Source of the DNA: Candidatus Heimdallarchaeota archaeon | GTDB lineage: Archaea; Asgardarchaeota; Heimdallarchaeia; Heimdallarchaeales; Heimdallarchaeaceae | Assembly: GCA_030603365.1 (NCBI GenBank) | Contig: JAUVXV010000017.1 | Location: 1-63,686 of the forward strand | Reading direction: 5' to 3' | Length of the DNA stretch: 63,686 nt | Shown here: positions 33,333 through 63,392 of the stretch, piece by piece | Numbering within the stretch: the first letter of the stretch is position 1 | How the letters are laid out: each line of letters starts with the position of its first letter | Translations under genes and position numbers: made by a program | Notes under the pieces: generated by a model | Told to the model about the DNA's origin: nothing | Database searches by the model: none | The model's input: only the letters and a program-made list of their open reading frames with translations

Positions 33333-33839
33333 ATGTATCGTCTAATCGATTTATTCAATTCCACAGAGAAAGAGAGAAATCGGTTCTTCTGTTTATTTAA
33401 AGAACTCTCTGAAGATGTTTGGCATACAAAACTAGAAGAAAAGCTTTGGTCCCCTGAGAACATCTTTAGACATTTACTAGCTACATTACAGTGGTTAAAG
33501 AATTATCTTCCAGATACTGAAGTTGAAGATAGTTCTCTAGGATTGGAATATGGTAAAGAGCCTGAAGGCAAGTATTCTATAGAAGAGGTAGAAAAAGAGT
33601 TCAATCGAATATCTTCATTAATTAAATTAGGTATCGAGAAATTAACTGCTGAACAAGAAGATGAAGAGTTAGAATCAATGTTTGGGATGGCTGCTAGATC
33701 ACACCTCATTGCTGGTCTTCTTATGCATGAACACAATCATTTTGGTCAAGTAACTTATATTATTAAAAGAGCAACTGGATTTAGTGACCAAGAACTTAGA
33801 GAGAAATTATTTGCTGCTTTAAAGAAAGAGGGTGGTTAA
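33333..33839 (+). CDS. DinB/YfiT family protein
   Basis: WSPENIFRHL and HEHNHFGQ metal-binding His pattern. Confidence 0.85.
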   Translation: MYRLIDLFNSTEKERNRFFCLFKELSEDVWHTKLEEKLWSPENIFRHLLATLQWLKNYLPDTEVEDSSLGLEYGKEPEGKYSIEEVEKEFNRISSLIKLGIEKLTAEQEDEELESMFGMAARSHLIAGLLMHEHNHFGQVTYIIKRATGFSDQELREKLFAALKKEGG

Positions 33840-33840
33840 G

Positions 33841-34134
33841 ATGTCCAAGGATAGGAAAGTCACAATTGAGGTTGTCGATATACTGGAAGCTGGAACTTGT
33901 AATTATGGTCATAAAAAGGGTGAACTATTTAACTATCCAGAAGATCGTGGAAAAATCTGTGCTGCAGCATTTAATGTAATATACCCTTATGCTCTTGGCA
34001 TTAGAATGGGAGCAAGTTTTCCGTGGGAAGAAGACCCAAAAAGCGTAACAATTTGCTGTCCAGATTACAAAAATCCAGTAGTATTCAAAATAACAAGAGA
34101 GGATACAAAACAATACAAAGATATGGTCAGCTAA
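33841..34134 (+). CDS. TIGR04076-family small Cys-rich protein
   Basis: GTCNYGHKKG, CAAAF...P, CCPD...VVFKI. Confidence 0.75.
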   Translation: MSKDRKVTIEVVDILEAGTCNYGHKKGELFNYPEDRGKICAAAFNVIYPYALGIRMGASFPWEEDPKSVTICCPDYKNPVVFKITREDTKQYKDMVS

Positions 34135-59785: not shown

Positions 59786-61155
59786 TGAAATTTATTCTTA
59801 ACCAAGAAATAATGGAAATTGATGCGCCATTAGGAAGTTCCACACTTGATTTCATACGAAATAAAGGAGTAAAAGGAGTGAAGGAAGCATGTCACGAAGG
59901 TGAATGTCTTTCCTGTGCGGTACTTCTTGGAGAGATAAGGGGCAATACCATTGTTTACAATACAATAGCATCCTGTATTCTCCCTCTAGGAGAAATTATA
60001 GGTAAACATGTTGTAACAATTGAAGGCTTAAATCAAGAAGCTTTGAATCCTATACAACATGCATTGGTAGACGAAGGAGCTAGTCAATGCGGTTTTTGCA
60101 CACCAGGATTCGTTATCAGTTTGACAGGATTTTTCTTAGATGAAAAACTTGAGAAAAAAGATATTCTTACAGCAATTGAAGGAAATTTATGCAGATGTGG
60201 TGCATATGCTGCAATAACTAGAGCAGCTGAGATGTTAGCAAACAAAATATCTGTTGAAGGTAAGAAATTTGAAGAAAGAATACAAATACTTATTGGAGCG
60301 GGTATTCTACCTCCTTATTTTGTTAATATACCAAGTCAGCTCATAAAACTAGAAGAGTCGAATAAAACAAAATTACACGAAGAAGGGACTTATGTTGCAG
60401 GTGCAACAGATTTGCTAGTCCAGCATGAAAGTTTATCTGATCCTGTATTTTTATCAGAAAAAGAGCTTACTGGAATATGGGTTGATAATGGGTATATCCA
60501 TATAGGGGCAATGACATCTATGGAAGATATTCGCATATCAGAAGAGCTAAATGCAATATATAATATTAAAGACCATTTGACTCTAGTTTCGGCTCTTCCA
60601 ATTAGACATCAAGCCACAATAGGAGGGAATCTTGTCAATGCTTCTCCTATAGGAGATCTTATCATTTATTTCCTGGCTCTAGATGCAGAAATAAGTCTCA
60701 TAAATGATAAAGATGGGAGAATTATCAAACTTAGAGATTTCTATAAAGATTACAAAAAAATGGATATGAAAGAAGGAGAAATAATTGAATGGCTTCGAAT
60801 CTCAAATAAAGAGAAATTATTTAATTTTGAAAAAGTATCAAAAAGGAAACACATGGACATAGCGAGTGTAAACAGCGCCATTTCTTTTGATTTGAACAAT
60901 AATAAGATACAAAATGTTCATCTTTCTGCAGGAGGATTAGCACCAGTTCCCAAATACATGGAAAACACTTCGAGTTTTCTTGAGAACAAGGAGATCTCAG
61001 CTGATGTAATAAAAGAAGCTGTGAGTATAGCAGATTCCGAGGTTACTCCTATAGATGACGTTAGAGGGACAGCTAAGTATAAACGATTACTCCTTAGACA
61101 GTTAATATATGCGCATTTCATCACTTTATTCCCTGATTTGGAGGTATCATTATGA
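59782..61155 (+). CDS. xdhA: Xanthine dehydrogenase small subunit (2Fe-2S and FAD)
   Basis: KEACHEGECLSC, QCGFCTPG, NLCRC, AGATDL, ATIGGNLVNASPIGD, PIDDVRG. Confidence 0.9.
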   Translation: MMKFILNQEIMEIDAPLGSSTLDFIRNKGVKGVKEACHEGECLSCAVLLGEIRGNTIVYNTIASCILPLGEIIGKHVVTIEGLNQEALNPIQHALVDEGASQCGFCTPGFVISLTGFFLDEKLEKKDILTAIEGNLCRCGAYAAITRAAEMLANKISVEGKKFEERIQILIGAGILPPYFVNIPSQLIKLEESNKTKLHEEGTYVAGATDLLVQHESLSDPVFLSEKELTGIWVDNGYIHIGAMTSMEDIRISEELNAIYNIKDHLTLVSALPIRHQATIGGNLVNASPIGDLIIYFLALDAEISLINDKDGRIIKLRDFYKDYKKMDMKEGEIIEWLRISNKEKLFNFEKVSKRKHMDIASVNSAISFDLNNNKIQNVHLSAGGLAPVPKYMENTSSFLENKEISADVIKEAVSIADSEVTPIDDVRGTAKYKRLLLRQLIYAHFITLFPDLEVSL

Positions 61156-63392
61156 AAGACTCAATTGGTCCTCACACTCGTGGTGAATCGATATATGTTG
61201 ATGACATGCCCGAACCGATTAACATCCTTCATGCAGTAGTTTTTGCTTCAAGTATAGCTCATGGTAAAATTCTATCTCTTGATATTACAGAAGCAGAAAG
61301 CAGTAAGGGTGTTCATAAAGTTTTAATCGCTAAAGATATTCCAGGAGACAATCAGATAGGACGCATTATTCAAGATGAAGAACTTCTTGCAGAGAAAGAA
61401 GTTCAGTTTATTGGACAACCAATCGCTGTTGTTTTAGCTGACACAAAAGCTCTAGCTAAACAAGCACTAAAACTAATTAATATTGAATATGAAGAGCTTC
61501 CTGGAGTATTTGACGCTCGCGAAGCTGCAAGAAAGGGATTGCTGATTTCTTCTTCGCGCACTTTAACGATTGGAGATATAGAATCAACTTGGGAAAAATG
61601 TGAATATGTTGTAGAAGGGAGAGCTGAGTCAGGAGGGCAAGAACATGTTTATCTCGAAACTCAATCTTCACTTGCTATACCAGATGAAAATGGAAGAATC
61701 ATCATTTATTCTAGCACTCAAGCACCTACAACTGTTCAGAGCACAACATCAAAGATTCTTAGTTGTGATATGAACTTGATAGAGGTAGATGTAAAAAGAC
61801 TTGGAGGAGCTTTTGGAGGAAAAGAAGATCAAGCAACTCAATGGGCTGCAATCTGTGCTCTCGGAGTATATCATACAGAACGACCTGTAAAGATAATCCT
61901 CAGTAGACGTGAAGATATCCAAATGACAGGTAAACGTCATCCTTATTCAACCGATTATAAGATAGGGCTAGATAAAGAAGGAAAGATTCTTGCTTTTTCA
62001 GCTGATTATTATCAAAATTCAGGTGCAAGTGCTGATCTTTCAACAGCTGTACTCGGAAGAACACTTTTCCATGCAGCAAATGTATACTATATCCCTAATG
62101 TTCGTGTAACAGGCTATCCCTGTAAAACAAACCTTGTACCCTTCACAGCATTTCGAGGGTTTGGAGGTCCCCAAGGAATGTTTGTTATAGAGTGCGCTAT
62201 TACACATGCGGCGGAAGTAACAAGTATTCCAGTTTCAGTTTTACAAGAAAGGAATTTGCTCAAAGAAGGTGACCAATTTCACTATGGAATGCAAGTTGAG
62301 AATTGTCAAGCAAAACGAAGTTTTTCTCGAGTTGTTAAAGATTCAAATTTTGAGAAAAGAAAGAAGGAAATAGGAAAGTTCAATGCTAAGAATCAATTTA
62401 CAAAAAAAGGTATCTCTATAATGCCAATTTGCTTTGGAATCTCATTCACTTCTACTTTTCTTAATCAAGCTGGTGCCCTTGTGAATATTTACAAGGATGG
62501 CAGTGTCAATATTAGTACAGGAGGGATTGAAATGGGTCAAGGTTTAAACATTAAAATTAAACAAATCGCTGTTCATACCCTTTCAATTAAACCTGAAAGA
62601 ATCAGGATAGAAAGTACAAGTACTAGCCGTGTTATCAACACTTCTCCAACCGCTGCAAGTACTGGGACTGACCTTAATGGAAAAGCAGTCGAAATAGCTT
62701 GCAATAAAATAATCGATCGGTTAAAGAATGTTGCTGCAGAGAAATTTGGGACAAATTCTATCTCAATTAAAGATGAATTTGTCTATCAAAACGGAAAGAA
62801 AACAGAATTCACATGGAAAGAACTTATCAATTTAGCTTATATGCAAAGAGTTAACCTTGCAGCACAGGCATTTTATGCAACACCAAAAATCTATTACAAT
62901 TCTGAAAAAGAGAAAGGAAGAGCTTTTGGTTATCATGTTTTTGGTGCAGCTGTTACAGAAGTTACTGTTGATTGCTTAAGAGGAACCTATACAATTGATG
63001 ATGTTCACATTGTCCATGATGCAGGAAAAAGCATTAACTATCTTGTAGATTTAGGACAGGCAGAAGGAGGTTTAATACAAGGGATTGGATGGATGACTTT
63101 AGAAGAATTAATTTACAACAACGGAAGGCTTCTTACAGATTCTCTTTCAACATACAAAGTACCTAACCTTCTTTTCACTCCAAAAATTAATGTTACTTTT
63201 CTTGAAGATGCAGAAAACCCAGAAGCAGTTCTGAAATCTAAAGCTATAGGAGAACCACCTTTTATGTATGGAATTGGGACTTACTTCGCTCTAAAAAATG
63301 CTGCTCAAGCATTTAGAAATAATATAGAATGGACATATTCTTCTCCTCTTACTCCCGAGAAACTCCTACTTTATTTATATGACATAGAATAA
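61152..63392 (+). CDS. xdhB: Xanthine dehydrogenase molybdopterin-binding subunit
   Basis: GGQEHVYLE, GGAFGGKE, GKRHP, LGRTLFH, AFRGFGGPQG, SPTAAS, SKAIGEPP. Confidence 0.92.
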   Translation: MKDSIGPHTRGESIYVDDMPEPINILHAVVFASSIAHGKILSLDITEAESSKGVHKVLIAKDIPGDNQIGRIIQDEELLAEKEVQFIGQPIAVVLADTKALAKQALKLINIEYEELPGVFDAREAARKGLLISSSRTLTIGDIESTWEKCEYVVEGRAESGGQEHVYLETQSSLAIPDENGRIIIYSSTQAPTTVQSTTSKILSCDMNLIEVDVKRLGGAFGGKEDQATQWAAICALGVYHTERPVKIILSRREDIQMTGKRHPYSTDYKIGLDKEGKILAFSADYYQNSGASADLSTAVLGRTLFHAANVYYIPNVRVTGYPCKTNLVPFTAFRGFGGPQGMFVIECAITHAAEVTSIPVSVLQERNLLKEGDQFHYGMQVENCQAKRSFSRVVKDSNFEKRKKEIGKFNAKNQFTKKGISIMPICFGISFTSTFLNQAGALVNIYKDGSVNISTGGIEMGQGLNIKIKQIAVHTLSIKPERIRIESTSTSRVINTSPTAASTGTDLNGKAVEIACNKIIDRLKNVAAEKFGTNSISIKDEFVYQNGKKTEFTWKELINLAYMQRVNLAAQAFYATPKIYYNSEKEKGRAFGYHVFGAAVTEVTVDCLRGTYTIDDVHIVHDAGKSINYLVDLGQAEGGLIQGIGWMTLEELIYNNGRLLTDSLSTYKVPNLLFTPKINVTFLEDAENPEAVLKSKAIGEPPFMYGIGTYFALKNAAQAFRNNIEWTYSSPLTPEKLLLYLYDIE

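Follow-up and report, generated by a model that had tools for sequence, protein, structure and literature searches.

The window analyzed here is a stretch of 63,686 nucleotides from a Candidatus Heimdallarchaeota archaeon (GCA_030603365.1, JAUVXV010000017.1), and it carries, in two blocks, the genes for what appears to be a reductive pathway of urate degradation. It makes up the entire contig C10 of a genome (G000) of 17 contigs and 3.65 Mb that is 89% complete. Genes were identified by calling open reading frames (ORFs) and by profile searches (Pfam, NCBIfam/TIGR), and the pathway proteins of E. coli were searched for by tblastn. The family comparison covered 31 Heimdallarchaeaceae genomes from five genera, including two closed, single-contig genomes (G015 and G016). 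The function of every gene was inferred from gene content, synteny, and motifs only. An original prediction, made from the DNA sequence, had proposed this pathway in an Asgard archaeon; all the genes it named are present in the window, and homologues with 62–96% identity are labeled Candidatus Heimdallarchaeota or Heimdallarchaeaceae, in agreement with the proposed host. A search of sequencing runs listed no RNA run. DNA runs were found, each covering part of the window, and the labeled ones among them are cold-seep metagenomes with shares of at most 0.32.

The first block starts with a gene for a MocA-like molybdenum cofactor cytidylyltransferase (34135–34746, plus strand; PF12804, 6.5e-29; TIGR03310, 109 bits, under its cut-off), which immediately precedes XdhD in each of the relatives examined. 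XdhD (34722–37379, plus strand) is an 885-amino acid molybdenum hydroxylase of the XdhD/DOPDH type, scoring 879.6 bits with TIGR03311 (cut-off 830), and fuses 2Fe-2S and molybdenum cofactor (Moco) portions without a flavin adenine dinucleotide (FAD) subunit, as in clostridial enzymes. Three genes follow on the minus strand, encoding carbamate kinase (CK; 37393–38349; NF009007, 416 bits, and TIGR00746, 377 bits, both over their cut-offs) and two carbamoyltransferases. CT1 (38361–39350) is similar to ornithine carbamoyltransferase (OTCase) and belongs to the YgeW clade; it scores under every cut-off and was assigned by tree and motifs. CT2 (39351–40304) is a pseudo-aspartate carbamoyltransferase (pseudo-ATCase), identified by TIGR00670 (257.5 bits, cut-off 237) and by alignment to 1ML4. 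The last gene of the block encodes an amidohydrolase of the hydantoinase/dihydropyrimidinase family (Hyd; 40471–41841, plus strand; TIGR02033, 302 bits, cut-off 393), the candidate for the role of HyuA.

All genes of the second block are on the plus strand. An SsnA-family amidohydrolase (56184–57500; NF005540, 349.9 bits, cut-off 444, next family 127 bits) is followed by a 358-amino acid UacX-type reductase (57501–58577), which consists of a DHO_dh/flavin mononucleotide (FMN) barrel (PF01180) and two 4Fe-4S domains (two Fer4 matches), and by a ThrC-like pyridoxal phosphate (PLP) enzyme (58574–59785; TIGR00260, 192 bits, cut-off 167). The block ends with XdhA (59782–61155; 2Fe-2S and FAD; TIGR02963, 304 bits) and XdhB (61152–63392; Moco; TIGR02965, 815 bits), both just under their cut-offs; XdhB retains the pocket motifs of xanthine oxidoreductase (XOR), namely RGFG, FGISF, PTAAS, and GEPP. 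The start of a TnpB-like insertion element (63393–63686, plus strand) comes next, of which blastn found many copies, several at contig ends. Contig C10 stops 294 bp past XdhB, inside this element, and as the window is the complete contig, the cluster runs into the contig end. Contig C17 opens with the opposite end of such an element, and right after it comes a gene of the XdhC family (C17:173–1159, outside the window; PF02625 and PF13478) that is 51% identical to the XdhC after XdhB in G016. C10 and C17 are thus likely to join, which would place XdhC after XdhB, but the join is unproven because the same repeat is present at other contig ends.

Between the two blocks lies an island of SBBP beta-propeller surface-protein genes (45928–55999), with a TBP gene inside it (47934–48509). 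In the closed genomes G015 and G016, the genes on both sides of this island form one unbroken series, in the order MocA, XdhD, YgeY, CT1b, a CysK-like PLP protein on the opposite strand, Hyd, SsnA, UacX, ThrC-like, XdhA, XdhB, and XdhC. Hyd is directly upstream of SsnA in both, and the YgeY of these clusters scores 630 bits with TIGR03526 (cut-off 321). Because the genes are contiguous in the closed relatives, the island was inserted into a cluster that already existed. Both halves of the window thus make up one unit that was split by the surface island, as the original prediction had it, and the island is no part of the pathway. SsnA orthologs occur in 25 of the 30 other family genomes, across five genera, and the cluster genes are intact, 60–91% identical, and in fixed order over these genera. 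Outside the family but within the phylum, the relatives of SsnA are distant only (34–35% identical). In eight relatives a contig starts 0.7–3.9 kb upstream of SsnA, an indication that assemblies are interrupted at this spot by repeats, for instance by the propeller island.

The best solved relative of the window XdhD is the selenium-dependent nicotinate dehydrogenase (NDH; 3HRD). At the positions of XOR F1009 and A1078, XdhD has isoleucine and threonine, and XdhB has phenylalanine and alanine. The pocket changes reported for DOPDH are F1009V and A1078T/S, and DOPDH was placed beside NDH (Liu et al., bioRxiv 10.1101/2025.04.24.650524).

The flavoprotein of the second block had been predicted to be YgfK-like, but it has the architecture of UacX instead. 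It has no FAD/NAD module and gave no tblastn match with E. coli YgfK, whose sole matches in the genome are on contigs C4 and C5. The reductase adjoins SsnA in every relative examined, and the bacterial groups in which it has homologues at 50–54% identity (Thermosipho, Clostridia) are largely those that also have SsnA homologues. Both the archaeal and the bacterial members have FE[IV]STHY at the position of NLSCPN, the catalytic cysteine loop of dihydroorotate dehydrogenases. The window SsnA is 50–54% identical to Clostridia and Thermotogae proteins that are labeled SsnA by their sources. Hyd is 29% identical to E. coli HyuA and matches the dihydropyrimidinase family (TIGR02033) best.

CT1 is the best match of E. 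coli YgeW in the genome (36% identity). CT1, the CT1b of relatives, and E. coli YgeW form one clade separate from the ArgF/ArgI OTCases (FastTree support 99), and in alignment to 1PVV, CT1 does not have the OTCase motifs DxxxSMG and HCLP. The tree thus bears out the proposed YgeW-like enzyme, although the NCBIfam YgeW model gives CT1 216 bits against a cut-off of 453. The window CK is 56% identical to E. coli YqeA and 86–90% identical to Anaerolineales copies. The sole other carbamoyltransferase in the genome is a true ArgF (431 bits).

CT2 shows a consistent set of changes from aspartate carbamoyltransferase (ATCase). All 88 of 88 members of its family retain STRT, R105, HPTQ, R167, and HSLPR; in the same 88, the TR[IV]QKER segment that contributes R229 and Q231 to the site for the β-carboxylate of aspartate is changed to EP[VT][VI]QPD, and the K84 loop to MTRAGDFY[QM]ES. 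The site for carbamoyl phosphate is thus retained. CT2 is thereby a pseudo-ATCase: STRT and HPTQ are kept, HPLP is altered, RxQ is lost, and the gene stands next to a YgeW-clade gene and CK. The retention of Arg167 together with the loss of the basic β-carboxylate site would fit an α-ureido acid with an amino or ureido side chain. Since its TIGR00670 score is over the cut-off, annotation pipelines call CT2 PyrB, and we considered it as the PyrB of this organism because the 89%-complete assembly has no other ATCase. This assignment was rejected, as the aspartate-site residues are lost and as four relatives hold both CT2 and a canonical PyrB of 346–351 bits; canonical PyrB (340–357 bits) occurs in 16 relatives in all. 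No canonical PyrB was found in the window's assembly, though PyrC, PyrK, and PyrD are present (C15:416666–419654; PyrI was not searched for), and an assembly gap is the most likely explanation.

The distribution of CT2 points to its role. YgeY was predicted to be absent from the window and to have a substitute, and the genome-wide search was also negative: the best match, on a different contig, scores 149 bits against a cut-off of 321. Among the 31 family genomes, YgeY is found in 8 and CT2 in 14, and none has both, with at least three changes of state on the SsnA tree. In G024, whose SsnA is the closest among the relatives, YgeY and CT1b occupy the slot between XdhD and Hyd that is held here by CK, CT1, and CT2. 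This alternation in the same slot is good comparative evidence that the CT2/CT1/CK cassette substitutes for YgeY/CT1b. Phosphorolysis of both ureido groups in this manner would yield up to two ATP. A 138-amino acid ORF elsewhere in the genome (C14:266585–267001; L016:3585–4001, minus strand) matches only the C-terminal third of CK, with 46% identity to the window CK; it adjoins a MiaB/MtaB-like methylthiotransferase gene and is a gene fragment or a small domain protein.

For the last step of the pathway, DpaL/YgeX, which was predicted to be absent from the window, was found in none of the 31 family genomes, including that of the window. The ThrC-like gene is strictly syntenic with SsnA and UacX in every genome examined and is the pathway-linked candidate for the predicted DpaL substitute. 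By profile its product is a threonine synthase, and it retains the PLP lysine motif, but NPYR is changed to NPYL and STGNT to STGNA; the same changes occur in the Chloroflexota copies that follow CK, and a ThrC-like paralogue on contig C9 keeps the arginine of NPYR. We take this arginine and the threonine of STGNT to be ligands of the phosphate of O-phosphohomoserine, as in T. thermophilus ThrC structures. The CysK-like PLP protein (487 amino acids) within the cluster of G016 is a further candidate for removal of diaminopropionate. The window's genome has a 485-amino acid ortholog on another contig (C1:277445–278902; L200:7446–8903, minus strand) that is 73% identical to the G016 protein. The C1 region around this gene, with its M20 peptidase, was considered as a displaced part of the pathway and set aside, its neighbors being unrelated.

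The carbamoyltransferase cassette has close relatives in bacteria. CT2 relatives occur in at least 587 bacterial stretches of public genomes (confirmed by tblastn), nearly all of them from Chloroflexota, at 74–93% identity, and the window's CT2, CT1, and CK are 86–93% identical to Anaerolineales genes. The order CT2-CT1-CK is kept in ~60 of 80 fetched Chloroflexota loci, often with a ThrC-like gene after the module and a gene similar to 8-oxoguanine deaminase or YgeY before it. The module is common among the purine clusters of Chloroflexota. In one locus (L117) it stands beside genes for 8-oxoguanine deaminase, adenine deaminase, and the FAD-binding subunit of xanthine dehydrogenase (XDH). Another (L171) has the module with ThrC-like, CysK-like, and F420 reductase genes, XdhD (TIGR03311, 926 bits), and SsnA (494 bits). 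Five Chloroflexota genomes that hold the module were searched: a true SsnA was found in 4 of the 5, DpaL in 0 of the 5, and SelD in all 5. Each of the five SelD genes (G400–G404) has one in-frame TGA, as expected for a selenocysteine-containing SelD.

The tandem carbamoyltransferases thus form a module that is widespread in Chloroflexota and that this archaeal genus shares by recent transfer; the module is no archaeal invention. Within the phylum, CT2 is limited to 14 of 25 genomes of one genus and four more distant copies, and archaeal CT1 and CT2 adjoin one Anaerolineales subgroup (L115–L120) in trees. The GC content at third codon positions is 0.32–0.34 for CK, CT1, and CT2, as compared to 0.18–0.29 for the 17 other genes of the window that were measured. 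The approximately unbiased test did not reject a tree in which all bacterial CT2 fall on one side (p = 0.54), the distant PyrB outgroup rooting poorly. Because the tree test is unsettled, the direction of transfer from bacteria to the archaeon is supported by the distribution and the third-position composition. CT2-type pseudo-ATCases with 65–68% identity are also present in four Asgard genomes outside Heimdallarchaeaceae, G045, G049, G050 (f4), and G058 (f5), and these copies may be independent acquisitions; G050 has an SsnA-like gene (35% identical) as well.

In the bacterial route, urate is converted to 2,8-dioxopurine by XdhD/DOPDH, dearomatized by YgfK, opened by SsnA, and converted to 2,3-diureidopropionate by HyuA; the ureido groups are then lost through YgeW, with carbamate kinase forming ATP, and through YgeY, and 2,3-diaminopropionate is converted to pyruvate by YgeX (Li et al., bioRxiv 10.1101/2025.05.19.654654; Liu et al., bioRxiv 10.1101/2025.04.24.650524). 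We consider it probable, at roughly 0.7, that both halves of the window encode an archaeal version of this reductive urate (2,8-dioxopurine) pathway. Synteny and co-occurrence give comparative support to this core of the original prediction, including ATP formation from carbamoyl phosphate. In the proposed pathway, XdhAB would oxidize hypoxanthine and xanthine to urate, and the XdhD-type enzyme, with a sulfido rather than a selenido molybdenum cofactor, would remove the 6-oxo group of urate to give 2,8-dioxopurine. The UacX-type reductase, presumably dependent on ferredoxin, would dearomatize the ring of 2,8-dioxopurine; SsnA would open the reduced ring to ureidomethyl-hydantoin, and the hydantoinase would convert this to 2,3-diureidopropionate. 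CT1 and CT2 would each phosphorolyse one ureido group, in an order that we infer, and CK would use both carbamoyl phosphates with ADP to form up to 2 ATP per urate, as compared to 1 in E. coli. The ThrC-like enzyme would then convert 2,3-diaminopropionate to pyruvate and ammonia, perhaps assisted by the CysK-like protein encoded on C1. Oxidation of hypoxanthine to urate would yield four electrons and the path from urate to diaminopropionate would consume four, so that a ferredoxin-linked purine fermentation would be balanced.

A more specific form of this proposal is tentative, and we put it at somewhat under an even chance. According to it, the 2,8-dioxopurine pathway is independent of selenium, CT2 phosphorolyses the second ureido group of 2,3-diureidopropionate and so doubles the ATP yield, and an enzyme derived from ThrC replaces DpaL; the fermentation of purines would then truly supply energy to archaea that are closely related to eukaryotes, and Xdh would be catabolic, not antioxidant. 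Within the proposed reading, CT2 most likely acts on the α-ureido group of 2-ureido-3-aminopropionate, a preference suggested by the retention of Arg167 in a site whose β-carboxylate pocket has turned acidic or neutral.

The cluster can be compared with several known systems. As in the cluster of the C. difficile type (Li et al., bioRxiv 10.1101/2025.05.19.654654), it has a fused Fe-S/Moco XdhD without YgfM or another FAD subunit, a short FMN and 4Fe-4S reductase beside SsnA, and a hydantoinase, and the electron supply is presumed to be of the ferredoxin type. C. difficile, however, relies on the hydrolase UacY and lacks both carbamoyltransferases and carbamate kinase, whereas the archaeon has two transferases and a kinase, a ThrC-like enzyme for DpaL/YgeX, and no SelD or YqeB/YqeC. 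The pathway of E. coli and C. sporogenes (xdhD-ygfM or xdhAC, ygfK, ssnA, hyuA, ygeW, yqeA, ygeY, and ygeX; bioRxiv 10.1101/2025.04.24.650524) shares its chemical logic with the archaeal one, as well as ATP formation by a YgeW-type enzyme with CK, a DOPDH-like pocket, and a separate XDH that feeds in urate. The archaeon differs from it in lacking YgfK, in the family-wide absence of YgeX, and in YgeY, which is replaced here and kept in 8 relatives; selenium dependence cannot apply, and a second phosphorolytic step is predicted. The Chloroflexota variant with an SsnA cluster has the same CT2/CT1/CK gene order and the same ThrC-like subfamily, to which L171 adds XdhD and SsnA. It differs in having SelD and, in L171, a gene for an F420 reductase in the place of the archaeal UacX. 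A uricolytic variant with an F420-type reductase has been noted in Chloroflexota, though its tandem carbamoyltransferases were not discussed (Li et al., bioRxiv 10.1101/2025.05.19.654654).

Pseudo-ATCases of group 2 are uncharacterized, and the copy of Nocardioides sp. JS614 is located beside a ygeW homologue, xdhABC, and hyuA (Barba et al. 2013, PMC4016543). CT2 resembles this group in keeping STRT and HPTQ, in having HSLP for HPLP, in the loss of RxQ, and in its YgeW-clade neighbor and purine context. It departs from the published groups at R230–Q232, which is PVV, PTV, or PTI rather than GX[SC] or VXP; a match would require a one-residue shift of the alignment. Just one pseudo-ATCase has been assayed, the ureidoglycine carbamoyltransferase of group 1, and it differs from CT2 in motif and context. 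The cassette also has a parallel in the arginine deiminase pathway, in which a catabolic OTCase and carbamate kinase likewise pass from ureido phosphorolysis through carbamoyl phosphate to substrate-level ATP; the substrates here would be purine-derived, with two transferases in series and no arginine deiminase.

Several observations weigh against a urate pathway at this locus. SelD and YqeB were each found in 0 of the 31 family genomes, two of them closed, and YqeC was not found in the window's genome, the only one searched for it; the genome-wide look for selD, yqeB, and yqeC that the original prediction had recommended therefore turned up none of the three in this genome. SelD and YqeBC are present in every bacterial holder of the pathway examined, and DOPDH from a selD mutant of C. 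sporogenes was inactive (Liu et al., bioRxiv 10.1101/2025.04.24.650524). Because SelD and YqeB are missing from all 31 genomes, the predicted “Se-type” Xdh next to MocA holds as membership in the TIGR03311 family but not as literal selenium dependence. An active archaeal XdhD would need a ligand other than selenium, presumably sulfur, and XdhC-type maturation (sulfuration) factors are present in the archaeal genomes. E. coli XdhD is just 25% identical to the window XdhD, and the NCBIfam scores of SsnA, Hyd, CT1, XdhA, and XdhB all fall under their cut-offs. The dearomatizing role of UacX, a short PF01180 protein in C. difficile, was itself proposed by comparison and not by assay (Li et al., bioRxiv 10.1101/2025.05.19.654654), and the two papers differ as to the ureido group that YgeW removes (bioRxiv 10.1101/2025.05.19.654654; 10.1101/2025.04.24.650524), so that any division of labor between CT1 and CT2 is tentative. 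E. coli XanQ and GhxQ gave no tblastn match in the genome, and thus no nucleobase transporter of those types was found.

Four other explanations were considered, all of them unlikely. XdhD might hydroxylate an N-heterocycle other than urate, for example one that resembles nicotinate or is a different isomer of the purine, with the downstream enzymes processing that ring. The relationship to NDH and the low identity to E. coli XdhD are compatible with this, and the substrate is not readable from sequence. Yet DOPDH was also placed next to NDH by Liu et al. (bioRxiv 10.1101/2025.04.24.650524), XdhD is over the TIGR03311 cut-off, and its linkage to SsnA, YgeY, YgeW-clade transferases, CK, and XdhAB is characteristic of the urate route; moreover, no ureido groups arise in nicotinate fermentation. 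We regard this alternative as improbable, and slightly more so one in which the cluster degrades pyrimidines or generic hydantoins by a reductive Pyd-type route, with a reductase similar to clostridial PydA, a dihydropyrimidinase, and cleavage of a ureido group, and the molybdenum enzymes are unrelated neighbors. UacX does share its DHO_dh fold and ferredoxin tail with clostridial PydA (Li et al., bioRxiv 10.1101/2025.05.19.654654), and dihydropyrimidinase is the best match of Hyd. The score of UacX with the PreA model is weak, however (120 bits, cut-off 335), its catalytic cysteine loop is gone, and over five genera it is always syntenic with SsnA, XdhD, YgeY (or CT2), and XdhAB. Pyrimidines would also provide only one ureido group, which would leave two carbamoyltransferases unexplained.

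The absence of selenium machinery, together with the inactivity of DOPDH from the selD mutant, also raises the prospect that XdhD is inactive and that the cluster is decaying or partly functional, for example with only XdhAB working and making urate as an antioxidant; a preprint on a Hodarchaeales culture takes Heimdallarchaeia Xdh as serving antioxidant urate production. Genes this well conserved in sequence and order over five genera do not resemble a decaying cluster, the ureido-cleavage cassette was exchanged and not lost, and XdhC sulfuration factors are available, so that the odds of this reading appear poorer still. We give the lowest odds to a CT2 that is an allantoate/ureidoglycine-type carbamoyltransferase (pseudo-ATCase group 1) in a lower pathway for allantoin-derived diureido compounds. 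Such a role is suggested by Rxyl_2847, a pseudo-ATCase beside carbamate kinase with reported ureidoglycine carbamoyltransferase activity (Barba et al. 2013, PMC4016543), by the two ureido groups of allantoate, and by the relationship of Hyd to allantoinases (211 bits). CT2 has HSLP where group 1 has HPLA, though, its context of YgeW homologue, xdh, and hyuA matches group 2 of Barba et al., and it alternates with YgeY, which belongs to the reductive route. No uricase, 5-hydroxyisourate hydrolase, or allantoinase is present in the cluster; a genome-wide search for these was not made. The reductive urate pathway remains the preferred reading of the cluster.

The surroundings of the cluster contain further genes. 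A DinB-family protein (33333–33839, plus strand; Pfam) and a small TIGR04076-family protein (33832–34134, plus strand; NCBIfam) are encoded upstream of MocA and kept there in relatives of the genus, and the order DinB-TIGR04076-MocA-XdhD is also present in L114 and L206. Between Hyd and the propeller block are three oxidoreductase genes unrelated to the pathway. A Zn-dependent alcohol dehydrogenase-family protein (ZnADH; 41933–42958, minus strand; Pfam) is kept between Hyd and SsnA in two genera (g1 and g2), with 2.3 kb between ZnADH and SsnA in G024, and is missing from the compact cluster of a third (g5); it is probably not a core part of the pathway. About 20 kb upstream of the cluster, on the minus strand (10594–13519), are genes for a 2-oxoacid:ferredoxin oxidoreductase (POR_N/PFOR_II and a thiamine pyrophosphate-binding subunit), a possible source of ferredoxin and sink for pyruvate. 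Farther upstream (371–6098, minus strand), six evenly spaced tandem ORFs of 274–307 amino acids resemble a paralogous array.

It was not until 2025 that the reductive urate pathway of gut bacteria was worked out, and a full-text literature search found no report of it in archaea. The cluster raises questions of enzymology: a selenium-free activity of the DOPDH type, a pseudo-ATCase as the missing second ureido-phosphorolysing enzyme that would bring the yield to 2 ATP per urate, and the roles of pathway-linked ThrC-like and CysK-like PLP enzymes. The in-place swap between YgeY-CT1b and CT2-CT1-CK illustrates cleanly how a cassette can pass between bacteria and archaea. For the organism itself, the cluster offers a catabolic reading of Xdh, as opposed to the antioxidant urate reading of the culture-based preprint, and a pathway conserved throughout a family of Heimdallarchaeia would make the fermentation of purines part of the metabolism of those archaea that are most closely related to eukaryotes.

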